Of a stretch of DNA of 33,970 nt, positions 3,976 through 28,583 are shown piece after piece. The notes below the pieces were generated by a model that saw only the letters and a list, made by a program, of their open reading frames with translations, had not been told where the DNA came from and did not search any database. Positions within the stretch are counted from its first letter, which is position 1, and every line of letters starts with the position of its first letter. This DNA is from a virus, in the UHGV virus genome UHGV-0040082. One strand, given 5' to 3'. The translations under genes and the position numbers were made by a program.

Positions 3976-4500
3976 TTATGTGCCATGATTAACACCATAA
4001 TATTTTTCTTCTAAAAACATCCTGTAAGCTACTGCATCACCGAAATCGTCAAAGTATTTATTGCTTTTTCTTTTTCCGTTCACAGCTATATACACCCTCC
4101 ACTGCTCCCTAGACTTGCACCACGATACACCACGAAAACCGCTAGTATTGTTTGACTTTATTTTCCCACTCCTTACGAAATCAGCACAGTTATCAACCTG
4201 ATAACCTATGTTAAGGTTTTCTATTCTATCATCACCCCTTACGTCGTTAATGTGCCTTATTACATGCTCATCAGGTATCGGGCCGTGATGCATTACCCAT
4301 ATAACTTGATGTCTATAGTAATTTCTCTTTTTATACGTGAATATGTAGTAACCGTTTTTATTCCTGGCGCCCACCGGACCCGGTTTTCTTCTTCCTCCAT
4401 TTTCACATATTAAAGTTTTCCAATATATGTTCCCTTCACTGTATATAAACAAGTCATTCCAGTTTATGCTATTGACCATGTCGTGATTTATTTGTGACAT
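3976..4500 (-). CDS. HNH homing endonuclease with C-terminal AP2-like DNA-binding domain
   Basis: HNH-type motif (HINDVRGDDRIENLN) followed by an AP2-like segment (GFRGVSW...W.V.I..NGK...); AT-rich relative to flanking tail genes; paralog of the ORF at 22125-22631. Confidence 0.8.
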   Translation of the reverse strand: MSQINHDMVNSINWNDLFIYSEGNIYWKTLICENGGRRKPGPVGARNKNGYYIFTYKKRNYYRHQVIWVMHHGPIPDEHVIRHINDVRGDDRIENLNIGYQVDNCADFVRSGKIKSNNTSGFRGVSWCKSREQWRVYIAVNGKRKSNKYFDDFGDAVAYRMFLEEKYYGVNHGT

Positions 4501-4742
4501 CCCTTAACCCCTGATAATTCATTAAATTTATGGTGCTCAACTATTGCCCACACTTTTAGATCCTTGCTGTACACTCGCCAATCAAGGTTGGCACGGAATG
4601 CGTAGCCGTATCCGTCTTTCAGTTTTTTGGGTGCTACGTCTTTCCTCAAGAACGCGTCCAGAAGTTCTTTTGCTTTTTTGACTACATGATCAGGTGCGTT
4701 TTTCTGTGCTTTCAGATTTTTACCAATCGCTACCAATTTCAT
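4488..4742 (-). CDS. Hypothetical protein (84 aa) upstream of and overlapping the HNH gene
   Basis: ORF overlaps the HNH start by 13 nt, suggesting an operon; no domain recognised. Confidence 0.4.
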   Translation of the reverse strand: MKLVAIGKNLKAQKNAPDHVVKKAKELLDAFLRKDVAPKKLKDGYGYAFRANLDWRVYSKDLKVWAIVEHHKFNELSGVKGCHK

Positions 4743-5085: not shown

Positions 5086-5439
5086 ATGCCGGAAGTTTTC
5101 AGATGGACGCCGCAAAGAAGCTACAGCGTGACCAGGGAACCAAACGTATCTGTCATTAAACTTGGTGATGGGTATGAACAACGCCAGGCGAAAGGGATTA
5201 ACACATTACTTGATAGTTACACCCTGGTTTTTAAAGGCAGTAGTGCAGGATGCGGCGATGGTGGGAATGTAGCAATCCAGGCGGAAGCATTCTTGAGGGC
5301 GCGCGGCGCGGTCGAGGCTTTTTACTGGTCGCCGTCGATGGATAACGTGCAGAGGCTTTTTGTTTGTCGTAGCTGGAGTATGACCAAAGACGGGCCTGTG
5401 TATACGCTAAATGCAACATTTGAGCAAGTTATTAATTAG
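5086..5439 (+). CDS. M: Minor tail protein M (lambda gpM-like)
   Basis: 117 aa; recalled lambda gpM pattern matches (FRW.P...., GDGY.QR, C..WS, FEQV.N at the C-terminus); good RBS. Confidence 0.8.
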   Translation: MPEVFRWTPQRSYSVTREPNVSVIKLGDGYEQRQAKGINTLLDSYTLVFKGSSAGCGDGGNVAIQAEAFLRARGAVEAFYWSPSMDNVQRLFVCRSWSMTKDGPVYTLNATFEQVIN

Positions 5440-6639: not shown

Positions 6640-7344
6640 ATGCGCAGCATACCTACAGAAATGATTATTGATTCCGTCGATGCCGGAGTCGGCGCGGTAA
6701 TTGATTTGTTTGAATTAGACCTCACGCCCCTGGGTGGCGAGGTTATCCGCTTCCATTCCGGCGCGAATGGTTATTACGGCCCGGTTATCTGGAAGGGAGT
6801 GACTTACAACAGCTACCCAATCGAGGCTACTGGCTTCGAAATGAAAAACGAAGGTGTTTACTCGCGCCCGCAAATGGTAGTAGCCAACATTGGCGGGCTA
6901 ATCACCGGGATGAACAACGATTTTAACGACCTGCGAGGAATGAAGGTTACGCGCCGCCAGGTGGAAGTAAAATACCTGGACGCTGTTAACTTCCCCAACG
7001 GCAATCCAGATGCAGATCCATCTATTGAGGCTGTATCTTTTTACGTCGTTGAGACGATGAGCGAAGAAACAGCCGACCAGGTGCAATATGAACTGTCAAC
7101 GCCAATTGATGCTGACAAGGCGGTTATCCCCGGGCGCACAATTCTCGCTGACGTTTGCCAGTGGCAATATCGCGGCGACGGTTGCAGATACAGTGGCGGC
7201 CCCGTAGCTACTGACAAAGACGAGCTAACCAGTGATCCGAAGCTGGATAAATGCAGCCACCGCCTAAGCGGTTGCCGTTTGCGTTTTCCGCGCCCTAATC
7301 CGTTACCAATTTCCTGTTTCCCTGGATCCAGCAAGGTGGGTTGA
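6640..7344 (+). CDS. L: Minor tail protein L (lambda gpL-like)
   Basis: 234 aa; recalled lambda gpL features present (ELDLT..GGE, VNF.NGN..ADP, cysteine cluster C.W.YRGD.C.YSG...KC...LSGC); RBS AAGGTGA. Confidence 0.85.
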   Translation: MRSIPTEMIIDSVDAGVGAVIDLFELDLTPLGGEVIRFHSGANGYYGPVIWKGVTYNSYPIEATGFEMKNEGVYSRPQMVVANIGGLITGMNNDFNDLRGMKVTRRQVEVKYLDAVNFPNGNPDADPSIEAVSFYVVETMSEETADQVQYELSTPIDADKAVIPGRTILADVCQWQYRGDGCRYSGGPVATDKDELTSDPKLDKCSHRLSGCRLRFPRPNPLPISCFPGSSKVG

Positions 7345-7346
7345 TT

Positions 7347-8078
7347 ATGGCACTTGAAGATAAAATGATTCGCTATGCAGCGGCCCACCCTGACGAGGAA
7401 GTATGCGGGCTGGTGATAGATAACGATTATTTTTACCCGTGTTTAAACGTGTCTGAAACGCCGCACAACAGCTTTAAAATCTCGCCTGACGATTATATCA
7501 AAGCTGACGAATTAGGCGTTATAACAGCCGTTTTCCACTCACATACTAACGATTCATTGGTATTGTCAGCACGGGATCGACAACAGCAGGTTATTTCCGG
7601 CCTACCGTGGTTTTTATGTTCCGGTGGCAGGGTAAGAAAATTCCGCCCGGTAGCGCACCTGTTAGGCCGTAAATTTGAGCACGGGAAAACAGACTGCTAC
7701 TCGCTTTTTCGTGACGCCTATCACCTTTGCGGCGTGGATCTGCCTGACTTTGAGCGCCGCGATGGGTGGTGGCTGCGTGGGGAAAACCTGTACATAAAAA
7801 ACCTGCCATTGAACGGGTTTTTCATGGTTGACGCGCAAAACATTCAGCCCGGTGATGTGATTATCCGCCAGCCGTTTAAAGGCGCTGACCCATGCCACGC
7901 GATGATTTACCTGGGCGATAACACTGTTTTGCATCATGACAATGCCGGACTGTTAAGCCGCCGCGAGCAAATGCGGCCCGCGTATGTTCGACAGACCAAT
8001 TCAATATGGAGATCTGACAAATGCTCAAATTTAGATTTACGGGCAATCTTCGAAGATATTACGGCAAGGTGTGTTTAA
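7347..8078 (+). CDS. K: Tail assembly protein K (JAMM/Mov34 plus NlpC/P60-like)
   Basis: HSHTN (HxH metal motif) in N-terminal half, Cys/His-containing C-terminal half; position between L and I; ATG at 7347 with GGTGG RBS. Overlaps next gene by about 58 nt. Confidence 0.8.
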   Translation: MALEDKMIRYAAAHPDEEVCGLVIDNDYFYPCLNVSETPHNSFKISPDDYIKADELGVITAVFHSHTNDSLVLSARDRQQQVISGLPWFLCSGGRVRKFRPVAHLLGRKFEHGKTDCYSLFRDAYHLCGVDLPDFERRDGWWLRGENLYIKNLPLNGFFMVDAQNIQPGDVIIRQPFKGADPCHAMIYLGDNTVLHHDNAGLLSRREQMRPAYVRQTNSIWRSDKCSNLDLRAIFEDITARCV

Positions 8079-8551
8079 ACGTTGATACGCCAGCACAAGG
8101 ACTTAGCCTATTGACCGCGCAGGATCAGGAGTTCAAGAAGGCTTTTTTAAATACACCTTTGCGCTTACGAATTGCCGGAAAAGATTATGACGAAAAGACC
8201 GCGCCCGCAGCGGTTAACAGTAAATACCCTGACGGAACAACCATCATTATTGCCCCAGTGGTTGAAGGTGGTATTGCGGGGATTGGTGTTGTGGGTTGGA
8301 TCTTGATTGGTGTTTCAGTGGTTAGCGTTGCGTTCTCGATCTTTATGTCACGCAACATGAAGATAAAAACATCAGCAGAAAGCGCACAAGATAACACCAT
8401 AACGAACAACACCTACACCAGCATTGAAAACAAGGTGGGACAGGGCAGGCCAGTGCCAATCCTGTTGGGTGAAATGAAAATAGGTTCAAACGTCGGATCG
8501 TTAGGCATAGACACAAGCAACAACAAAGACGCCTTAGACGTTGTAAGTTAA
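8021..8551 (+). CDS. I: Tail assembly protein I (lambda gpI-like)
   Basis: 176 aa; hydrophobic Gly/Ile/Val-rich centre and LLGEMKIGS motif resembling lambda gpI (YGEMRVGS); position between K and J. Confidence 0.8.
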   Translation: MLKFRFTGNLRRYYGKVCLNVDTPAQGLSLLTAQDQEFKKAFLNTPLRLRIAGKDYDEKTAPAAVNSKYPDGTTIIIAPVVEGGIAGIGVVGWILIGVSVVSVAFSIFMSRNMKIKTSAESAQDNTITNNTYTSIENKVGQGRPVPILLGEMKIGSNVGSLGIDTSNNKDALDVVS

Positions 8552-14572: not shown

Positions 14573-17500
14573 ATGATTTACACAACTGGAACAGTTGCCA
14601 TTAACGGCAATACTGTTAAAGGCACGGGAACAAACTTTTCCGCGCCGCTTTCTCTTATTCGTGTAGGTTGCACGCTCATTGCTGTTGGCAATCCTGTGCA
14701 GATCTTTACCATCACGGAAATTAAAAGCGGCACTGAACTGTTAGTGACGCCAGCAGCTAACCCCGCAATCCCTGCCGGGACAAAATTTAGCATCCTGCTA
14801 TCTGATTCGATCTCAGTTGATGGGCTTGCTCAGGACGTAGCTGAAACCCTGCGTTACTACCAGAGCAAAGAAACAGAAATCGCCTCCGCCGTAGAGTGGT
14901 GGAATGAGATCGGCGGCGAAGGTCAGTTGGATCAGCTTCTTACCAACATTCGCGCAGAAACAGCCAAATCAACCGCTAACGCTCAAAAAACAGAAACTGA
15001 CAAAAACGCAGCAGAAGCGTCAAAAACAGCGGCTGCAAAATCCGCCACGGCAGCGAAAACATCAGAAACCAACGCTAAGGCAAGCGAGACGGCAGCGAAA
15101 ACAAGCGAAACCAAAGCCAAAACATCAGAGGACAGGGCGCAAGAATATCTGAATCAAATGGGAAGGCTTACCAGCCCAATGGTCCAATGTGCTTGGCCTG
15201 TTGAAACTAGCGGTAATGGCGCTTACGTTAAGATTGCTAAACTTAGCGATCCAAAGTCATCAGACTGCCACTTAACGCTAATGGTTACAAATGGCGGTGG
15301 CTACGGTTTAAGTTACGGGAATATTGACTTTATAGAGATCTCCGCTCGAGGTCTTAACGACACAGGCGAAGTAACCAGTGAAAATATATCTAAATTTTTA
15401 AGTATTCGCCGACTCGGTTCACCAAACCTTCCCAATAATAGTCAAATGTGTTACGGCCTGGTTAAAGGTGACGGCTATATCGAGGTCTGGTGCTACCAGC
15501 GATCTTATATTAAAAACACAAAAGTAGCGGTGCTGGCGCAGACTGGCAACACGGAATTATACATTCCTGAAGGATTTGTTAAGCAAGCCGACGCACCCGC
15601 TGGATATATTGAAAGCCCAGCAGCAAGGATTTACGACCAGGTAAACAAACCCAGCAAGGCAGATCTGGGCCTTTCTAATGCTATGCTTACAGGCGCTTTC
15701 GGTCTTGGCGGTAGCGGGATATCAACAACCGGCAAGATGAGCGATGTAGAGATCTTAAAAGCTCTGCGTGACAAAGGTGGTCATTTCTGGCGCAGTGATA
15801 GGCCGACCGGAAGTACGGCGACCATTTATAGCCGCGGTTCTGGTATATTCTCGCGGTGCGGCGATACGTGGTCGGCGATCAATATCGACTACGGAACAGG
15901 TAAAGTCAAGGTTTACGCTGGTAACGATGGTGGACTTAATAGTGGTAATTTTTCCGTCAATGAGCTATACGGAACCAAAAATAAACCGTCGAAATCGGAC
16001 GTTGGACTTGACAACGTAACCAACGATGCACAGGTTAAAAAATCCGGCGACACCATGACTGGCGACCTGTCGATCACTAAAGCAACACCTTCGATATACA
16101 TTCGTTCAAAAAGTGGAACCGCCCATGTATGGTTCCAGAATGAGGATCAATCGGAACGCGGTGTTATCTGGGCGCCTACCAATTCCGAAGGACTTGGCGA
16201 AGTTCACATCAGGGCCAAAAATACAAAAGGTGAATCAACTGGTGAACTCATTGTTCGTCACGACGGGGAAATTAGGGTTCCCAGTCTCACAGCGAGTAAA
16301 AAAATAAAAGGCGCAACCGCAGATTTTACAAACACATCAGAAACCACGACGGAGAACACGTTAAAAATCAGCGGTAAGCAGCATACACCGTTAGTTTTAA
16401 CGCGTACCGGGTATTCTGAAAACCTGTCCATTGGCTTCAAGGTTGATAACGTTGTTCAAAAATACCTCGGTATTAATAGCGGTGGGGATCTGTGTTTTGG
16501 TGATTATGCCGATCACAAAACAAACAGCAAAGTTATCACGCAAGCAGTGCTTGATAGCGGTGTGACGGTAGGCGGTCAGACAACCTTTTCTAAACTTGCC
16601 ACATTTAGCAAAGGCATGACCGGGCCTATCGTACCGGAAGGGCTTGACTCACGTACCATTGATCTTAATGACCTAATCATCAATGGTTCAGATATAGGAT
16701 CGGTCAAATACTATCAATGTACATCTTCCAGTGGTGGAGCGAACATTACCAACAAGCCTGACGGCGTAGGCGGTAACTTCTTGCTGCGTGTAGAGTCAGT
16801 CCGTAAAGTTAGTGATACTGACTATATAAGTATGCAAACACTGACTAGTGGCGACAAAGAACGCGTATTTGTTCGTTTTAATACTAATAGTAAGTGGACA
16901 GCATGGTGTGAACCTGTTGTATCGGGATGGAAGCAGGATGTGTCTGTTAAGACGCTAACAGCAGCCGAAGACGTCATCCTTAAAAACAGTGATACTGGTC
17001 CGCGCCTTATTTTAAGGAACTCTAACACATCGGCGCAGTCGTGGAGTGTAAGGGTGTGGGGTGAAAGCGGAAGGGAAAGCGTTTTTGAGGTTGGTAACAG
17101 CAATAGTTACATGTTCTATGCTCAGGAAGATGCAGCAGGAAACAAGAAATTTGACTTTAACGGTGATATTTCATGTAAGACGCTATATCAAACTTCTGAC
17201 CAGAGCCTTAAAGACAACATTAAGGTTATAGGTGACGCCACCGAATCCATCCGCAAAATGAATGGGTACACCTACACGTTTAAGGACGATGGCCTGCCTT
17301 ACGCTGGCGTTATTGCACAGGAAGTAATGGACGCGCTGCCTGAAGCGATAGCGTTTACCACTCTTTGCGGCAAGGAGCTACAAGGACCAACAACTGACGG
17401 CAACATCTTACGCGAGGAAATGAAGTGCCTCAGCGTTGACTATGCGGCGGTGACTGGTTTACTTGTCCAGGTGGCACGCGAAACGGATAACCGCGTCACC

Positions 17501-17608
17501 GAACTGGAAGAGGAGAACGCAAGCCTGAAAGCTAACATTGCCGCAATGGATGAGCGGATAGCAAAACTTGAAGCGCTTATCAGTCAGTTGACCGGAAGCG
17601 AAGAATAA
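14573..17608 (+). CDS. Side tail fiber with C-terminal intramolecular chaperone (peptidase S74-like) domain
   Basis: 1011 aa; Ala/Thr/Lys-rich heptad-like N-terminal repeats; C-terminus has SDQSLKDNI...GVIAQEV...P.A motif typical of self-cleaving fiber chaperone domains, then a coiled-coil tail; RBS GGAG. Confidence 0.8.
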   Translation: MIYTTGTVAINGNTVKGTGTNFSAPLSLIRVGCTLIAVGNPVQIFTITEIKSGTELLVTPAANPAIPAGTKFSILLSDSISVDGLAQDVAETLRYYQSKETEIASAVEWWNEIGGEGQLDQLLTNIRAETAKSTANAQKTETDKNAAEASKTAAAKSATAAKTSETNAKASETAAKTSETKAKTSEDRAQEYLNQMGRLTSPMVQCAWPVETSGNGAYVKIAKLSDPKSSDCHLTLMVTNGGGYGLSYGNIDFIEISARGLNDTGEVTSENISKFLSIRRLGSPNLPNNSQMCYGLVKGDGYIEVWCYQRSYIKNTKVAVLAQTGNTELYIPEGFVKQADAPAGYIESPAARIYDQVNKPSKADLGLSNAMLTGAFGLGGSGISTTGKMSDVEILKALRDKGGHFWRSDRPTGSTATIYSRGSGIFSRCGDTWSAINIDYGTGKVKVYAGNDGGLNSGNFSVNELYGTKNKPSKSDVGLDNVTNDAQVKKSGDTMTGDLSITKATPSIYIRSKSGTAHVWFQNEDQSERGVIWAPTNSEGLGEVHIRAKNTKGESTGELIVRHDGEIRVPSLTASKKIKGATADFTNTSETTTENTLKISGKQHTPLVLTRTGYSENLSIGFKVDNVVQKYLGINSGGDLCFGDYADHKTNSKVITQAVLDSGVTVGGQTTFSKLATFSKGMTGPIVPEGLDSRTIDLNDLIINGSDIGSVKYYQCTSSSGGANITNKPDGVGGNFLLRVESVRKVSDTDYISMQTLTSGDKERVFVRFNTNSKWTAWCEPVVSGWKQDVSVKTLTAAEDVILKNSDTGPRLILRNSNTSAQSWSVRVWGESGRESVFEVGNSNSYMFYAQEDAAGNKKFDFNGDISCKTLYQTSDQSLKDNIKVIGDATESIRKMNGYTYTFKDDGLPYAGVIAQEVMDALPEAIAFTTLCGKELQGPTTDGNILREEMKCLSVDYAAVTGLLVQVARETDNRVTELEEENASLKANIAAMDERIAKLEALISQLTGSEE

Positions 17609-17638
17609 GAGGTGATGTGCGAAGAACATCGCCGCGCG

Positions 17639-17666
17639 AAACGAGGCTAACGCCTCGTTTCTTTTT
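17639..17666 (+). terminator. Rho-independent terminator after the side tail fiber gene
   Basis: 9-bp stem aaacgaggc/gcctcgttt, loop taac, followed by cttttt. Confidence 0.75.
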
Positions 17667-17812
17667 ATGTACCAAATAGTGACCAAATACCCAAAACCAA
17701 AAACAAAAGCACTGTAACATACTGTTTTATAAATTATTATTCACAAAGCTAACCATTCCAAGCATACGGCAGATGGCAGGGCGACCAAGAAGAATTGTTG
17801 TCGTTTTATCCA

Positions 17813-18475
17813 TTATCTTTTCCCCGTGTATTCAACGTGTCCGATACATCCATCAATAATAGCTTGCGCCATATTGCGATAATCGCACGAAAAATCATTG
17901 TCACGGCTAAAGTCAATCTCGCTTGCCGCATCTTCACCCATTACCTTAGTGGCAAGTGCGAACGCTATTTCAGCGAGCGCCTTTTCTTTCGGGTCAATGT
18001 GAATGCGGTAAGAGTATTTCTTCCATGCTACAGTTGTTTCCGTTTCTGATACTAATTTACTGTGAGCGATAGCCCAATTATCACCGAGATATAAAAACTT
18101 AACGACATCGATAACCGTTCCGCTCGTAAGTCCTACACAATCAAGCCACACACCAACCGGAGGCTTTTCACATGCCAGCCATTCCGTTTTTTCAGGTTGT
18201 GTTTCGCAATCATGGTGCTCATCTTCGATTAATTCATCAATAATTTCACTTTCTTTATTCATACCGTCATCATCCTTATTCGATAAATTGGCGTATTTAT
18301 CAAATTTCCAGCTTGCAGCCATAACCGAATAAGTGCCGCCAGTGTCAGCGCGAACACCCAATAAATAGTATGATCCAAAATTATATTCCGTGTGGCATGT
18401 TGTTACCTCAAACGATGGGTAACACTCAGGGTTGGCGCGATGGCTAATCACGCCAATTGCTTTAAGTTTATTCAT
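17813..18475 (-). CDS. Hypothetical protein (220 aa), last gene of the minus-strand early operon
   Basis: Good RBS (GAGGA); no domain recognised; acidic central segment. Confidence 0.5.
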   Translation of the reverse strand: MNKLKAIGVISHRANPECYPSFEVTTCHTEYNFGSYYLLGVRADTGGTYSVMAASWKFDKYANLSNKDDDGMNKESEIIDELIEDEHHDCETQPEKTEWLACEKPPVGVWLDCVGLTSGTVIDVVKFLYLGDNWAIAHSKLVSETETTVAWKKYSYRIHIDPKEKALAEIAFALATKVMGEDAASEIDFSRDNDFSCDYRNMAQAIIDGCIGHVEYTGKR

Positions 18476-19106: not shown

Positions 19107-19667
19107 TCAAAACAATTGCAATTGAAAACGTTCGCTGACTTCTTTCATTAACTGCTTAACATGTTTCTTATCACGCTTTCGCTGAGTTAACAGGCGGCTT
19201 CCAACCTTGCCGACCGTTTCGCTATCAGTAGCAAAACTGCTTACTGCATTCATTACCTGTTCACAGCTTGCGCCGCAACAAATAAGACCCTTAACGTGTT
19301 CAGCCATGTCATCATGTGTTTTAGGTTTTTCTCCGTAATAGCCATTATGACGAATAGATGGCAATACTTCCTCAAACACCCAATCCTGGAAGCGTTCGGC
19401 TGATTCAAGTTTTGAATGCATAATCAAGCGGAAAACATCCGGTTCGTAAATCAGGCCAACTCCTTTCGGCTTGAATCCGAATCCTAATTCTCGCGTTTTG
19501 CGAGAATCAAGTTTAATCAATGATTTACAGTGTTTTTTAATAGCATCATGCTCGTTCTTATAACCTAACGCGCGAGCAACATTAACAGCAACAAAAGCTG
19601 GCTTATCTGCATAAATAACCGTTTGCACTTGTTTATCATCAAACGAGAATTTAACAACCTTATTCAT
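19107..19667 (-). CDS. Bro-N domain protein (antirepressor-like)
   Basis: N-terminal Bro-N-like segment (AVARALGY..EHDAIKKHCKSLIKLDS ... SKLESAERFQDWVFEEVLPSIR); paralog of the ORF at 23783-24520. Confidence 0.7.
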   Translation of the reverse strand: MNKVVKFSFDDKQVQTVIYADKPAFVAVNVARALGYKNEHDAIKKHCKSLIKLDSRKTRELGFGFKPKGVGLIYEPDVFRLIMHSKLESAERFQDWVFEEVLPSIRHNGYYGEKPKTHDDMAEHVKGLICCGASCEQVMNAVSSFATDSETVGKVGSRLLTQRKRDKKHVKQLMKEVSERFQLQLF

Positions 19668-19857
19668 GTTTTACCCCTTTATAACTTTCGTTTCGCGCCT
19701 TCATAATCATTTGAAGGCTGATTAATTTAGAAGAAGTCATAAAAGCGCTTTTTAAGTACCTCATATCAACAACAACAGGATTATCAGGATCGCCGCCGCG
19801 CATGTATTCCGCAATTGTGCTTAAGTCTTCAACTGTCAATTCCAATTCACTGTTCAT
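19660..19857 (-). CDS. Hypothetical small protein (65 aa)
   Basis: Start placed at the internal ATG (MNSELEL) preceded by AAGGGGG. Confidence 0.3.
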   Translation of the reverse strand: MNSELELTVEDLSTIAEYMRGGDPDNPVVVDMRYLKSAFMTSSKLISLQMIMKARNESYKGVKHE

Positions 19858-19867
19858 GATCGCCCCC

Positions 19868-20074
19868 TTACACAATCCGCATTGTGTTTCGTAATTCTCC
19901 GCGCAACGCCCGTAATGCATCGCGCATCGGCACGAAAACCCGGTTAAATTTTACGTGTTTATATTTCCGCATTAGTGGCGGCGTATACACCATTGCGTCG
20001 TATACTTCCCACGGATAATAAACACGCGTATCGTCAACAAACGTTTCAACTGAATAAAAAATTACACGCCTCAT
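19868..20074 (-). CDS. Hypothetical small protein (68 aa)
   Basis: ORF with plausible RBS; no domain recognised. Confidence 0.3.
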   Translation of the reverse strand: MRRVIFYSVETFVDDTRVYYPWEVYDAMVYTPPLMRKYKHVKFNRVFVPMRDALRALRGELRNTMRIV

Positions 20075-22124: not shown

Positions 22125-22631
22125 TCAGGGTAAAGAAATACCGTGATTGCTATGAAAGTTATACATTCTTTCAGCTTCTTTTCTTGCTTTTACGGCATCA
22201 TCAAATGAGTCACCGTAATAAACGTATATTGTTTTCTTTTTCCCATCAGACCCCCTTATACCTATTTGCGCGCGCCATTTATTAGTTTTCTTGTTCCATG
22301 TAACGCCAACGCATCCGCTGGTGTTACTTGATGGTATTGTTTTATTTCTGTTGTTCTCCCTCCTTGTAACCATCCTTAAGTTTTCGATTCTATCATCGCC
22401 AGGCACATGATTTATGTGATCTATTTCCATTCCATCAGGGATAGGGCCGTTAAACATTTCCCAAATAATGCGGTGACGCCATGTACAACACACACCATTA
22501 ACGCGGATAGTCCAATATCCGCTATGATGCCTACTTCCAGCAACGTCACCGGCTTTTGTTTTGTTATTTGCGCGGTTACAAGACCAATATAGAACACCGT
22601 CCCTATAGGTAAATAAATCATCCCACATCAT
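22125..22631 (-). CDS. HNH homing endonuclease with AP2-like domain (second copy)
   Basis: EIDHINHVPGDDRIENLR motif followed by GCVGVTW...W.A.I motif; start overlaps the stop of the upstream gene; paralog of the ORF at 3976-4500. Confidence 0.75.
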   Translation of the reverse strand: MMWDDLFTYRDGVLYWSCNRANNKTKAGDVAGSRHHSGYWTIRVNGVCCTWRHRIIWEMFNGPIPDGMEIDHINHVPGDDRIENLRMVTRRENNRNKTIPSSNTSGCVGVTWNKKTNKWRAQIGIRGSDGKKKTIYVYYGDSFDDAVKARKEAERMYNFHSNHGISLP

Positions 22632-23748
22632 GACACACCACCATTTCAGGCCTATATACAAAGCGACCAATTTCGCCATAATCAGGACTGTAAATGATAA
22701 CCGCCGCGCAACGTTGCGATCTCCATCCTCCATTAGTTGAATAAGCGTCTTTGCCCGCTAACGTGCCGTGGTGTTCAACTATGCCTATAGATGATTCTGT
22801 TACTGATTTATGGTGCAAATGTCCGACATGGACGTAAACATATTTCGACTTGCCGAAATCCTCGCGCCAGTCAGCTACGCAAGCAGCCAATAAATTTTCC
22901 GGCTTTTTAATAGTGTGCCCGTGGTGGTAAGCAAGAAATGTTTTACCGTACTGCGTGTGGTGGACGATAGCAGGTGACACATCAACCGTCACGCGCGGTT
23001 CATCTTCGTAAAAAGCCGCCAGCGCCGCACGTAGCCAAATCATGCCTGACTGATCGTGATTGCCTGACAACACCTGGATTTCAACATCCTTATGATTTAA
23101 CAACATTTTACCTACCGCCCGCCGGACAGACCGGATCGCCACATAAACAAGTTTTGCGTAGCGACTATCTTGATCAAGAATGTGCCCGCTTATTGGCGTC
23201 ACCGGGACCATACCGTCAGAATGAAGCAGATCGCCACCGAGGAGCAGTACGGCTTTTTCAGACATCGGAGCAGCGCCAACAGCGTAGTCAAAGAAGTCAT
23301 TCAACACGCGCTCAGCGATCCCAGTGTCGTAGCTCTCGCCGCATTCAGCTTTATGAGCAAGCGCCCCGATATGCAGATCAAACACCGGATAAAGGGCCAG
23401 GCTTTTTTGAAAATCAATTTCAGGCACTGGCACAGCCTCCGCGCGTGGTATTTCATCCGTGAAAGCGTCGCGGGCCGCTTCCATTAACTGTTCCATTTCG
23501 TCGCGGTCACGGGCTGTTTTAATCCAGCGCATGATCACATTGCCATCCTTATCGACGAGCAATGACTCAGCATTGACGCCAAAACCCGGTGCGCGACGCG
23601 TGGATATTAAACCGCGTTTCGCCAGTTTTGCGCCTAGCCGCTCGACGTTGCGTTTTGACATGCCATATTTTTCAGCGATCTGCTTGTACGTTAAACCGTT
23701 GTTATATTCAGCGATCAATTGCTCATCGCTGATTTTTCTTTGTGACAT
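22618..23748 (-). CDS. HTH domain fused to calcineurin-like metallophosphoesterase
   Basis: N-terminal HTH (LTYKQIAEKYGMSKRNVERL); then phosphoesterase motifs in order: DLHIG, GGDLLHSDG, GNHD, YHHGH, GHLHH. Confidence 0.7.
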   Translation of the reverse strand: MSQRKISDEQLIAEYNNGLTYKQIAEKYGMSKRNVERLGAKLAKRGLISTRRAPGFGVNAESLLVDKDGNVIMRWIKTARDRDEMEQLMEAARDAFTDEIPRAEAVPVPEIDFQKSLALYPVFDLHIGALAHKAECGESYDTGIAERVLNDFFDYAVGAAPMSEKAVLLLGGDLLHSDGMVPVTPISGHILDQDSRYAKLVYVAIRSVRRAVGKMLLNHKDVEIQVLSGNHDQSGMIWLRAALAAFYEDEPRVTVDVSPAIVHHTQYGKTFLAYHHGHTIKKPENLLAACVADWREDFGKSKYVYVHVGHLHHKSVTESSIGIVEHHGTLAGKDAYSTNGGWRSQRCAAVIIYSPDYGEIGRFVYRPEMVVCHDVG

Positions 23749-23782: not shown

Positions 23783-24520
23783 TTAGTTGCAAGTTAAAAG
23801 CTCAGTGATCCATACTTGTCCTTTAGCAGTGAATACAGCCTGCTCATATCCATCGTGAGTTACCCTCATTTCACCGTAGCCCTCATCAATAAACCACTGA
23901 CTGAATACACGGCGGCGACAGCGAAGATCATAAACACCAACCGCCGAAAGTTTTCTGTTTAATTTTACGGCTGACATTCCCAGCGGTTTAGCTACCTCTG
24001 AAGCCGTTCGGTGCATATCGTTTTTGACTATCGCGTCACATACAGCCGCTTTCGGAGCCAGCACTTTATTTTCAAGCGCAAGACGTTCATTTTCTTGCTT
24101 AACTAACAATTTTTGCTCGTATTCATTAGCCCACGCCCGCGCCGCTTCCGCAGGGTTAGAGAAGTCAGGCAAAGCAGGTTTGCAACCGTAACACCCATTT
24201 TCACGCAAAGCCGGAAGAACCTCCTCGCACACCCAATCCTGGAAGCGCTCGGCTGATTCTAATTTTGATCTCATAACAAGACGGTATATATCTGCCTCTC
24301 GAATTATAATTATGCCTTTTGGTCTGAACCCAAAACCTAATTCCGTTGTTTTAACGGAATCAAGTTTAATCAATGACTTACAATGTTTTTTAATGGCCTG
24401 ATGCTCGTCGTTGTACCCCAGCGCACGGGCCACATCAACCGCAACAAAAGCAGGTTTACCGTCATAAATTACAGCAGTGATTTTATTGTCATCAAAATTA
24501 AAACACATCAACTCAGACAT
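23783..24520 (-). CDS. Bro-N / KilA-C-type antirepressor-like protein
   Basis: Start at MSELM with GGAGA RBS; N-terminal Bro-N segment near-identical in places to the ORF at 19107-19667; longer C-terminal domain. Confidence 0.7.
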   Translation of the reverse strand: MSELMCFNFDDNKITAVIYDGKPAFVAVDVARALGYNDEHQAIKKHCKSLIKLDSVKTTELGFGFRPKGIIIIREADIYRLVMRSKLESAERFQDWVCEEVLPALRENGCYGCKPALPDFSNPAEAARAWANEYEQKLLVKQENERLALENKVLAPKAAVCDAIVKNDMHRTASEVAKPLGMSAVKLNRKLSAVGVYDLRCRRRVFSQWFIDEGYGEMRVTHDGYEQAVFTAKGQVWITELLTCN

Positions 24521-24652
24521 TGTAATTTCTCCGTAAAACGCTCTACAACGCAAAAATCCCACCGCGTAACCCGTTTGCACAGGTTGCAGTGTCTTATTGC
24601 GCCAGAGGCGCTATCAGGTGGCTAATTTTCGATTTACAGACTGGTATGTAGG

Positions 24653-24768: not shown

Positions 24769-25407
24769 CTAAAACGAATTATTAGAAACGAATTTTCTGT
24801 ATGGCTTAGGTAACGAAGGAGTGTTGCCGCCAAATAACAACCTTATCGCATTAACAGAAAACTCAACATACATAAACGGTTCACCATCAGCATGATAGCC
24901 AACCTGTTGGCGAGCAAGCCCGCGAAGCGCCATAGACGGCGTAACAATCCAGCCATTATCAACCTTTTGAACCATGCCCAGCTTTGCAGCAGCCTTATAA
25001 ACTTCACCAGACTTTCCAGGCAAGATTTTCCCTGGAGTAAGGAATACACCCTCAAGCATGTTGATCAGGCAATCATTTTCCTTGCGTAACTGCGCTGCCT
25101 CTTTCTCTCTTTCGATGAAGTAGTCACGAACCGCGCGCCCCTTAGGTGTGTGCTGGATCATCGCAATGTGTTTTGCTGCCTCAACAGTCAGAAAATATTC
25201 AGATGCTGGGCGGCCTCCATCCAGGTTATGAACATTTTTGTTCAAAACCTCAAAATCCAAAGACTTACGCAACCCGCACGCCTTTATCTGACGCTTTATC
25301 CACATGTGATAAGGAGTTTTAACACCCATTGCCTCATGTAACTGGCGACCGTCAACAGCCTCGCGCGTAACGCCGTCCATATCCTTAACAACAATATCGA
25401 ACTTCAT
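24769..25407 (-). CDS. AntA-domain antirepressor-like protein
   Basis: 212 aa; N-terminal region resembles the AntA/AntB family; RBS GAGAGGA. Confidence 0.5.
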   Translation of the reverse strand: MKFDIVVKDMDGVTREAVDGRQLHEAMGVKTPYHMWIKRQIKACGLRKSLDFEVLNKNVHNLDGGRPASEYFLTVEAAKHIAMIQHTPKGRAVRDYFIEREKEAAQLRKENDCLINMLEGVFLTPGKILPGKSGEVYKAAAKLGMVQKVDNGWIVTPSMALRGLARQQVGYHADGEPFMYVEFSVNAIRLLFGGNTPSLPKPYRKFVSNNSF

Positions 25408-27143: not shown

Positions 27144-27647
27144 ATGAAAACAAAATGGTATGACTTAGCAAAACAACTCATGCGGGCGCAGGGCATGAGC
27201 CAGGATTCATTGGCTGATCTTATGGGGATAACCAAAGGCGGCCTTTCTCACTGGCTGAACGGTCGCCGTGAGCCGAATCTTGAAGATATTGCGCGTATCA
27301 TGCGGGCGCTTGGGCGTCGGCAATTCACTGTTACTCATGACGGAATGGTCATTGATGATTCTGTTTCTAACACGTTGCTGGGAGCGCCACCGCGTGATTT
27401 AGGCAGTTATCCGGTTGTTGACTGGAAGGATGTAGCAAACAATATGGAAGGCACACACCGATCAACATTGCCACACGTTGCTACTAGCGTTATTTGTTCG
27501 GATGATAGTTATTGGCTGGTTGCTAAAGGTGAATCAATGAACGCACCGCAGGGGTTAAGCATCCCGGCGGGGACTATGATACTCGTTGACCCGCACGCGC
27601 CAGCTATTGACGGAAAACTTGTTATAGCACAACTGGAGGAAGGGTAG
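27144..27647 (+). CDS. CI-like repressor (HTH plus S24 peptidase domain), ended prematurely by in-frame TAG
   Basis: N-terminal HTH (MSQDSLADLMGITKGGLSHWLNGRREP), S24 Ser motif GESM; TAG at 27645-27647 comes before the expected catalytic Lys segment. Confidence 0.75.
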   Translation: MKTKWYDLAKQLMRAQGMSQDSLADLMGITKGGLSHWLNGRREPNLEDIARIMRALGRRQFTVTHDGMVIDDSVSNTLLGAPPRDLGSYPVVDWKDVANNMEGTHRSTLPHVATSVICSDDSYWLVAKGESMNAPQGLSIPAGTMILVDPHAPAIDGKLVIAQLEEG

Positions 27648-27791
27648 ATACCTACGTTTAAGCAGTTGATTATTGATGGAGGCCGAAAACTTTTGCGTTC
27701 GCTTAATCCGCTGTATCCGCCAATCCCTATGAATCCAGAATCAAAAATATTGGGCGTGGTGGTTGATGCGAAGATCGTAAACCTGCCATAA
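27648..27791 (+). other. In-frame continuation of the repressor reading frame after the TAG
   Basis: Same frame translates to IPTFKQLIIDGGRKLLRSLNPLYPPIPMNPESKILGVVVDAKIVNLP, resembling the C-terminus of lambda CI (..FTFKKLI..LQPLNPQYP.I.....VVGKV..), ending at TAA 27789-27791. Confidence 0.7.
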
Positions 27792-27797
27792 ACATTA

Positions 27798-27818
27798 GCC
27801 GCCGGATGGCGGCTTTTC
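27798..27818 (+). terminator. Rho-independent terminator after the repressor frame
   Basis: Hairpin gccgcc-ggat-ggcggc followed by ttttctt. Confidence 0.65.
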
Positions 27819-27915
27819 TTCGCCCAAAAAAACACCAAAACGTAAACAGAAAACGCTATTTATTGTTTAGATATCAATAGCATATAAAATATTTTAAAAA
27901 AGTATACAAAATGGA

Positions 27916-27944
27916 TTGACTCGGTGTTTTACGGGGCGTATATT
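27916..27944 (+). promoter_or_regulatory. Near-consensus sigma70-type promoter (pL-like) for the plus-strand early operon
   Basis: TTGACT (27916-27921), 17-nt spacer, TATATT (27939-27944). Confidence 0.6.
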
Positions 27945-28198
27945 GCGAATCAAAGGAAGGGCGTAGGTAACAAAAGCAGCTTCCTGGCACTTTAAAAATC
28001 AGGCTTAACACCTTGTCAACCGTGGAGTAACTCCCCGATGGGGGACCGAAAGCGGCACTGATAACAAGGCGCATGGGGTGTTTAAAGCGTTACATCCCCC
28101 ACGAAACCGCACGCAAGGCGACGAGTCAGCTTGCTTGGAGTGAGCAAGGTCACACCGGAAACGGCGATGATTGCGGGATTAGTTGAAAGATGTTAAGC

Positions 28199-28236
28199 CG
28201 CTCATTAAAAATCTGGTCAGCCGCTGGAAGTGCGGC
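28199..28236 (+). promoter_or_regulatory. Candidate nut-like site (boxA-like plus boxB-like hairpin)
   Basis: CGCTCATTA (28199-28207; compare lambdoid boxA CGCTCTTA), then hairpin GCCGC-tggaagt-GCGGC at 28220-28236, about 55 nt upstream of the N-like gene. Confidence 0.4.
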
Positions 28237-28292
28237 AATTAACGAAGATGATTTTTTATTAAGTTTCATCAAGGATATACGGAGATCAGATT

Positions 28293-28583
28293 ATGAGCGT
28301 TACAATTATGTATGGAAAATGTGATAGCAAAATGAACGCCAGGGAACGCAGAAGGATAAAAAGAGAAAACGAAAGAAAATCATCACCTGCAATTAATAAA
28401 ACAGACAATGTGGATAAAGCTATTCGATTTGCAAACGAGGAAAGGTGCAAACCAAATAGCATTAAAGAACGTCGCAAAGGATCAGTAAAATGGTATACGG
28501 AAAATGAAAGCGGCAGCTACTACCACGCAACGCAACCACGCCATTTAGGGGAGAAACCCCTGGATAAAGTCCGTTACCATTAA
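28293..28583 (+). CDS. N-like antiterminator candidate (arginine-rich motif protein)
   Basis: 96 aa; N-terminal arginine-rich segment NARERRRIKRENERK; first gene downstream of the pL-like promoter and nut-like site; RBS GGAG. Confidence 0.45.
   Translation: MSVTIMYGKCDSKMNARERRRIKRENERKSSPAINKTDNVDKAIRFANEERCKPNSIKERRKGSVKWYTENESGSYYHATQPRHLGEKPLDKVRYH

Follow-up and report, generated by a model that had tools for sequence, protein, structure and literature searches.

Convergent operons of an mEp021-like coliphage almost certainly enclose a deletion scar in the phage attachment site, in whose making the phage integrase may have taken part

In UHGV virus genome UHGV-0040082, a stretch of 33,970 nucleotides whose whole length is here called the window, a plus-strand late operon and a minus-strand early-left (replication) operon run towards one another, and their final intact genes, open reading frames (ORFs) 14573..17608 (+) and 17813..18475 (-), end 204 bp apart. 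Is this tight convergence the native organisation of the phage or the mark of a rearrangement and, if something has been lost, what was it and how did it go? The data presented here indicate that the convergence is native and that the short interval is almost certainly a deletion scar, with its crossover at 17758-17760, in what was once a phage attachment site (attP) followed by an integrase gene. The explanation that best covers the locus, in which a native layout suffered a deletion of integrase origin and the phage was left to lytic growth, is considered probable as a whole, with real room for doubt. The features that make up the scar are as follows.

17609..17756, no strand assigned: P arm of attP, of the dgcM/ydaM type and including an A-rich tract, matching the phage side of attR in Escherichia coli strain 2-331
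17668..17687, no strand assigned: arm-type repeat TGTACCAAATAGTGACCAAA, present in both arms of attP of the 2-331 and MagusPhagus type
17757..17760, no strand assigned: remnant TCCA of the attachment (att) core, 4/9 bases; the left homology ends at 17760 and the right one starts at 17758
17727..17813, minus strand: stub ORF of 28 codons, MDKTTTILLGRPAICRMLG/MVSFVNNNL followed by a stop, made of the 5' end of a helix-turn-helix (HTH) gene and read-through into the P arm

The att core is a 9-bp sequence, TCCAGACAG, as given by attL and attR of one lysogen and by the end plus start of the mEp021 record. In strain 2-331 attL reads ...GAAACGA TCCAGACAG TAACGATTCG... and attR reads ...GCTAACCAT TCCAGACAG GACTGGTG..., while attP of mEp021 (record end plus start) reads ...CTAATCAT TCCAGACAG TAACGATTCG.... 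Across the junction the window reads ...GCTAACCAT TCCA/AGCATACGGCAGATGG..., where the slash marks the crossover and the core remnant runs into AGCAT (TCCA/AGCAT). To the left of the slash lies the phage side of the 2-331 attR, identical in the aligned stretch (BLAST 99.8% over 461 bp), and sequence equivalent to this P arm also ends the mEp554 and mEp021 records; to the right, HTH codons 18 to 1 follow in antisense. At the crossover point in the HTH gene relatives have ...GCTAATTCCCCCAAGCATACGGCAGATGG..., and CCA (17758-17760) is the sole sequence common to both parents there, a 3-bp microhomology. The full core TCCAGACAG was not found in the window.

Relatives hold attP, a tyrosine integrase gene (int) and a 76-codon HTH gene at this junction, ~1.7 kb in all. 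Compared with mEp021, the window lacks record positions 5-1517, i.e. 1,513 bp comprising core bases 5-9, the 177-bp P' arm, the whole of int (the mEp021-type product has 404 aa with Phage_integrase and Arm-DNA-bind_3 domains) and HTH codons ~20-76. Between 17609 and 17813 the window retains the late-operon terminator, a P arm with a single arm-type repeat, the core bases TCCA and a gene stub of ~19 codons. The twin of TGTACCAAATAGTGACCAAA, whose usual place is in the P' arm directly before the int ATG, is deleted; judging by their position and by the Arm-DNA-bind_3 domain of the integrases, the repeats are probable arm-binding sites of the integrase (Int). Where a functional attP of the lambda type has a complete core identical to attB and arm-type repeats on both arms, the window has an incomplete core and a repeat on one arm only. 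The first ~19 codons of the stub (17757-17813) correspond to the start of the 76-codon HTH_23 gene, gp02 in mEp021, and the stub ATG at 17813 overlaps the gp03 stop (TAATG). A tblastn search of the window with the HTH proteins of mEp021 and M15 matched residues 1-22 only (E 5e-8), and full-length relatives of the stub match Pfam HTH_23 and the PHROG 'DNA binding protein'. Integrase is absent across the window (best tblastn E 0.28). Because half a core, an orphaned arm and a gene stub were left behind, the interval is best read as a deletion scar and not as an ancestral layout without int.

A deletion does lie at exactly this place, one not recognised in the preliminary description of this DNA, and it took away int, one half of attP and the greater part of the small HTH gene. 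The A-rich stretch noted there is real but is the P arm of attP and not a mere spacer, and a minus-strand gene does end at 17813, but it is not the last minus-strand ORF, as the stub lies beyond it. A promoter-like TTGGAA-17-AATAAT on the minus strand across the junction was set aside, its 9/12 match being no better than that of shuffles.

Framing the scar are two genes and a transcriptional signal.

14573..17608, plus strand: side tail fibre gene, last of the late operon, 1011 aa in the ORF list and annotated as tail fibre / S74 peptidase in relatives
17638..17666, plus strand: intrinsic terminator of the late operon, with a 10-bp stem, a 4-nt loop and a T5 tail
17813..18475, minus strand: gene of 220 aa, homolog of mEp021 gp03, the last intact gene of the early-left (replication) operon

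The product of 14573..17608 carries a C-terminal Peptidase_S74 intramolecular chaperone domain (Pfam PF13884, E 2e-12), and Pfam and PHROG scans of the 220-aa gp03 homolog gave no match. The hairpin at 17638-17661 is followed by TTTTT, and the 72-nt terminator region folds at -29.5 kcal/mol (z = -4.95), a stability reached by 0/200 shuffles. It is conserved in mEp021, in MagusPhagus, in the E. coli 2-331 prophage and other E. coli prophages, and in IMG/VR loci; furthermore, the mEp554, mEp044, mEp010 and mEp013 records annotate a terminator under the match to this hairpin. With its GC-rich hairpin, U tract, place at the end of an operon and conservation, this is a Rho-independent terminator, and it is unidirectional because the minus strand has no T-run.

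Megablast places the window among mEp021, mEp554, mEp010, mEp044, mEp515, mEp013 and MagusPhagus, and it also matches prophages lying between dgcM (ydaM) and ynaN/zntB in many E. coli genomes. DNA identity is 86-91% to the mEp phages and MagusPhagus and up to 94% to E. coli prophages, from which the phage is assigned to the mEpimmI (mEp021-like) group of temperate siphophages of E. coli; with int lost secondarily, as the stub and the half core indicate, the absence of an integrase is no argument against this ancestry. The group was described in 2025 as Nus-dependent, non-lambdoid temperate siphophages with 48 highly syntenic genomes; they encode a CI-like repressor and the N-like antiterminator Gp17, and their integrases fall into four types that go with four att sites. 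An integrase is present in all 48 genomes, and attL and attR of mEp021 in ydaM have been validated by polymerase chain reaction (Negrete-Mendez et al., PMC11893012).

In the prophages of these relatives the order starts with dgcM, attL, int (+), the 76-codon HTH gene (-) and gp03 (-), followed by NinB, helicase, replication protein and a MarR-like gene, all (-). The plus-strand series then runs through CI-like repressor, N-like gene, ERF, SSB, Dam, NinG, RusA, Q-like antiterminator, holin/lysozyme/Rz, terminase, head, tail, J, lipoprotein and side fibre to attR and ynaN. It follows from this order that convergence of the late and replication operons is native to the circular phage form, the interval between them holding the terminator, attP (P arm, core, P' arm), int (+) and the HTH gene (-). 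Gene order on either side of the junction in the window is that of the mEp021 relatives, and Pfam and PHROG scans of the window ORFs agree with it. The replication genes (helicase and HTH_36 replication protein) lie on the strand opposite to the repressor-ERF-SSB-Dam-NinG-RusA-Q-like-lysis-head-tail series; this is not the lambdoid arrangement, in which replication genes belong to a rightward operon continuing through nin and Q to lysis, head and tail.

The window therefore resembles the mEpimmI phages and MagusPhagus in the end of its late operon (J, lipoprotein and side fibre on the plus strand), in its early-left operon (gp03, NinB, DnaB-type helicase and replication protein on the minus strand), in the plus-strand CI-like repressor, candidate N-like Gp17, ERF and SSB, and in a P arm of the dgcM/ydaM att type with an identical terminator. 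Unlike them, it is without int, the P' arm, one half of the core and the greater part of the gp02 HTH gene, and its repressor is truncated at residue 167 of 215. That repressor gene is of the Immunity-I CI-like type (Rep021), with 96% identity to mEp021 gp15 over the aligned part, and ORF 28293..28583, a candidate for the N-like antiterminator Gp17 of the nutL/nutR1/nutR2 system, matches the PHROG 'anti-termination protein N-like' (E 5e-13). The leader at ~27800-28583 is ~99% identical to E. coli 2-331, as against ~93% for the flanking genes, and holds a TTGACT-17-TATATT promoter-like site and GC-rich hairpins ahead of ORF 28293..28583; on sequence grounds it is taken to correspond to the published nutR1/Gp17 region (PMC11893012). 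An Rfam scan of the whole window at gathering thresholds gave no match.

Several points made in the preliminary description hold up against this background: the side fibre gene ends at 17608 as the ORF list has it, the hairpin between the convergent genes is borne out by its folding z-score and its conservation in relatives, and the overall architecture is indeed non-lambda, the group being published as non-lambdoid. The suggestion that Q and the lysis genes had been deleted from the replication operon is wrong, since relatives carry both on the plus strand beyond the right end of the window, and the synteny comparison proposed there shows that the convergence is conserved throughout a described group, for which a complete reference genome exists. 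As such, the convergent architecture adds nothing by itself; what sets the window apart is the scar.

To place the scar among related genomes, the junction was compared with 5,426 complete E. coli genomes and 50,697 phage records (INPHARED). All matching records, 277 E. coli genomes and 27 phage records, show a two-sided homology break at 17758-17760, and no record in either collection spans the junction of the window; a junction 28-mer, exact or degenerate, likewise had no match in IMG/VR, GTDB genomes or JGI metagenomes. Meanwhile, 34 homologs of gp03 were found in IMG/VR, and those loci with adequate flank have the full HTH gene and int in every case except one, IMGVR_UViG_3300045988_049781 (hereafter L038). 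The distance from terminator to gp03 stop is 1.64-1.68 kb in the undeleted IMG/VR loci versus ~150 bp in the window.

An exact-sequence look-up of the 167-aa repressor of the window found it on four contigs, including ERZ28614608 scaffold_1096, ERZ27287485 and Logan ERR7745787, and the amber codon that truncates it is exact in three contigs. A 61-mer across the junction is present exactly in ENA ERZ28614608 scaffold_1096 (MERR22-1_SAMEA4969121-S001_METAG-scaffold_1096; 54,515 bp) and in a contig from ERZ27287485, two separate ENA assemblies of which the first is metaSPAdes-style and the second MEGAHIT-style. Outside a mosaic patch of 120 bp (19911-20031), only a few single-nucleotide polymorphisms over ~30 kb separate the window from the contigs that bear the junction, which points to one clone assembled independently several times and not to an assembly chimera; for the same reason the idea that the lineage had diverged since the deletion was rejected. 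The junction is thus carried by more than one metagenome assembly, from samples that may or may not be independent. In the readable parts of the 54.5-kb scaffold, terminase, portal, head and tail genes lie upstream, and by synteny with relatives the remaining ~11 kb would be filled by the DUF6378-NinG-RusA-Q-lysis-TerS stretch. The patch at 19911-20031, where the window and the near-identical contigs L088 and L091 show ~38 differences (~30% divergence), falls in two small ORFs of the minus strand, 19660..19920 and 19868..20074, and has the look of a short allele replacement of mosaic type.

Two explanations that do without a natural deletion can be weighed on these data. A native, ancestral branch without int, lytic or non-integrating, in which the module was never at the site, would account for a window without integrase and for a junction seen in several assemblies. 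Such a branch is extremely improbable, given a P arm that matches a lysogen attR at 99.8% and leads into half a core, ~19 HTH codons kept with a translationally coupled ATG and then read through into the P arm, and int in all 48 published genomes as well as in all adequately flanked IMG/VR loci except L038. An assembly chimera or a laboratory-engineered deletion would fit with the absence of the junction from IMG/VR, GTDB, JGI metagenomes, the 5,426 E. coli genomes and INPHARED, and two lysogeny lesions together, in attP-int and in the repressor, do look like a deliberately 'virulised' phage. This too is very improbable: different ENA assemblies share exactly this junction, a Logan assembly has the amber codon as well, and engineering would not normally spare 19 codons of one gene and cut inside a core. 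Unequal flank identities were considered as a sign of chimerism and rejected, both flanks being ~91-94% identical to relatives.

The second lesion concerns the immunity region.

27144..27647, plus strand: CI-like repressor gene, amber-truncated, TAG at 27645-27647 replacing CAG (Gln168)

The orphaned 3' end of the repressor gene (27648-27791; 144 nt, 48 codons) is still in frame and conserved, and in IMG/VR all 43/43 complete homologs have 215 aa and encode Gln168 by CAG or CAA. In alignment to lambda CI (3bdn, E 1e-19) the stop falls just before TFKQL, the counterpart of lambda TFKKL, which contains Lys192, so that the truncation would remove the catalytic lysine, the last strands of the dimerisation domain and the C-terminal portion of the S24 domain. 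Furthermore, integrase, a complete attP and the putative excisionase gene are all missing from the window, and the loss of int together with an incomplete core and a missing P' arm predicts that integration would fail even with Int supplied in trans. Bearing both lesions, this is probably a once-temperate phage that is unable to lysogenise and is most likely confined to lytic growth.

Other losses in the group bear on how the scar arose. L038, the other int-less locus, came out of the gp03 survey, which was done without reference to att. It belongs to a divergent lineage of the group, 72-88% identical to the window in matched segments, and at 5286-5420 bears an independent deletion that took int, the P' arm and the 3' portion of the HTH gene; its repressor is intact. 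Its HTH gene reaches codon ~41 and is fused to CTGTCTGGA/ATGATTA... (P arm plus complete core); the core side reads ...AATCAT TCCAGACAG/GGGAACGGAG..., and the junction TCCAGACAG/GGGAACGG is the right edge of the att core. A census of genuine P-arm-plus-core sites in IMG/VR gave 5 attR, 6 intact attP and 1 deletion, that of L038. In L022 (IMGVR_UViG_3300045988_076816, ~7980-8120) and L023 (IMGVR_UViG_3300045988_064823, ~7990-8130) the whole attP is gone between flanking direct repeats of ~22 bp, TGTGTACCAAATAGTGACCAAA, and the terminator then abuts an intact integrase gene of the MagusPhagus type; by sequence this is a different route to the loss of integration, plain recombination between the 22-bp arm repeats. 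Contigs with other att lesions carry intact repressors.

In L020 (IMGVR_UViG_3300045988_084845, 6833-7444), another free-phage contig, the integrase match covers residues 202-405 only, with normal spacing from terminator to gp03, and the N-terminal half of int may be disrupted or divergent. In both core-anchored deletions the other endpoint lies within the first 41 HTH codons, although ~1.56 kb was available, which suggests either a hotspot or selection to inactivate the HTH gene too.

The mechanism proposed is that the phage's own tyrosine integrase made or initiated the deletion by recombining the att core with a weak secondary site in the HTH gene. The core used would have been that of attP in the circular genome, in an intramolecular reaction, or that of attR during aberrant excision, and the heteroduplex overlap would have segregated to one parent in the window and to the other in L038. 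Loss of the integration module, together with truncation of the repressor, would then have left a phage without lysogeny that propagates lytically. The left breakpoint of the window lies inside the 9-bp core; both int-lacking junctions found touch the same core, the window at its left part and L038 at its right edge. Permissible crossover intervals are core positions 1/2-4/5 for the window and 8/9-9/10 for L038, and, provided that the heteroduplex overlap segregated in this way, they fit the pair of staggered cuts that a tyrosine recombinase with an overlap of 6-8 bp, e.g. CCAGACA, would make. On a rough estimate, the probability that two random left endpoints in a dispensable interval of ~330 bp both fall in the core is ~1e-3, and so small a chance of coincidence favours an integrase-promoted event. 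Involvement of the integrase in the deletion is, on this basis, moderately likely.

Several points weigh against this account. The HTH-gene site of the window has 5/9 core matches; of the 1,555 positions in the deleted interval, 15 do better and 73 do equally well, which puts it in the top ~6% of positions and makes it unconvincing as a good secondary att site; the L038 site has 4/9. A microhomology of 3 bp (CCA) or 1 bp (G) is also what illegitimate recombination independent of Int would produce, only two events are known, and the loss of attP through 22-bp arm repeats in L022 and L023 indicates that the region is prone to deletion without a core-specific mechanism. As for the loss of lysogeny, repressor function would be lost or doubtful as judged from the truncation, and in a supE host, where TAG is decoded as Gln, wild-type repressor would be made again. 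The HTH gene is a putative excisionase by position only. Finally, integrase is not in the gene tables of the readable parts of the 54.5-kb scaffold, and for the other ~11 kb it is excluded by synteny and length only.

These points are in part the case for Int-independent illegitimate recombination, by replication slippage or microhomology joining at CCA, with the endpoint in the core owed to coincidence or to bending or fragility of attP. Such joining would leave a 3-bp microhomology and need no core-like second site, and L022 and L023 do lose the same region by short-repeat recombination. It is nevertheless regarded as unlikely, because the window lineage and L038 both end in the same 9-bp core out of a permissible interval of ~330 bp, and L038 turned up without reference to the core. 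Integrase-promoted deletion can also be stated in a more far-reaching form, as self-deletion through the att core and weak sites in at least two independent natural events, with the lineage of the window now obligately lytic; put in this way it is a tentative proposal, held with less than even confidence.

The scar has precedents. In lambda, work of 1971 by Parkinson and Huskey, by Parkinson, and by Davis and Parkinson is said to have found Int-dependent deletions with one endpoint at the att crossover point. These lambda deletions are similar to that of the window in being viable deletions that start from the att core and remove adjacent non-essential DNA, and in pairing att with a poorly matching secondary site on the same molecule. 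They differ in that they were laboratory selections, whereas the window is natural and metagenome-derived; moreover, the integrase of the window group is of the P4-like Arm-DNA-bind_3 type with a different core, the window deletion removes int itself, and Int-dependence in the window is inferred.

In HK022, Int is reported to promote a rearrangement that involves att and a secondary site within the prophage (Dorgai et al. 1993, cited in PMC6379469), and secondary attachment sites are reported for lambda (Shimada et al. 1975, cited in PMC6379469). In both, an integrase acts on a weakly similar site in or near its own phage genome; the HK022 case is an inversion in a lysogen, that of the window a deletion in a genome of the phage form, which bears the P arm. 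Temperate phages are also known to give rise to lytic derivatives, e.g. phiIPLA35 and phiIPLA88 from phiA72 and phiH5, and deletion mutants of Lactobacillus phage A2 (PMC6526443). Like the window, these have a C-terminal repressor truncation and/or a deletion in the lysogeny module with lytic functions intact; unlike the window, which comes from metagenomes and bears two independent lesions, in integration and in repression, they were laboratory-selected. The scar is a fresh instance of known phenomena, i.e. att-anchored deletion, action of Int at secondary sites, and the emergence of lytic derivatives.

Elsewhere in the window, an HNH_3+AP2 endonuclease gene (3976..4500, -) and a gene for a protein with a ParE-like toxin domain (4488..4742, -) are inserted in the tail module, and a second HNH_3+AP2 gene (22125..22733, -) lies in the replication operon; these minus-strand HNH_3+AP2 and ParE-like insertions are probably mobile or moron genes. 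The replication operon also holds three antirepressor-type genes of the Bro-N / KilAC / AntA kind (19107-19667, 23783-24580 and 24769-25407, all -), where relatives have one or two at the corresponding positions.

Here, a natural and sequence-resolved case is provided of a temperate phage that has lost integration, and probably repression, while keeping its full lytic programme, and that appears in more than one metagenome assembly. In lifestyle prediction, an 'integrase-negative' call would mislabel such a phage, which is recently ex-temperate, and this is of relevance to safety screening for phage therapy. If integrase was involved, the two core-anchored junctions map the strand-exchange region of an uncharacterised P4-like coliphage integrase, and would mark Int cleavage positions bracketing an overlap of ~7 bp, CCAGACA, inside TCCAGACAG. 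Furthermore, if the proposal holds in full, integrase-catalysed self-deletion would be a recurrent natural route by which temperate phages become virulent.

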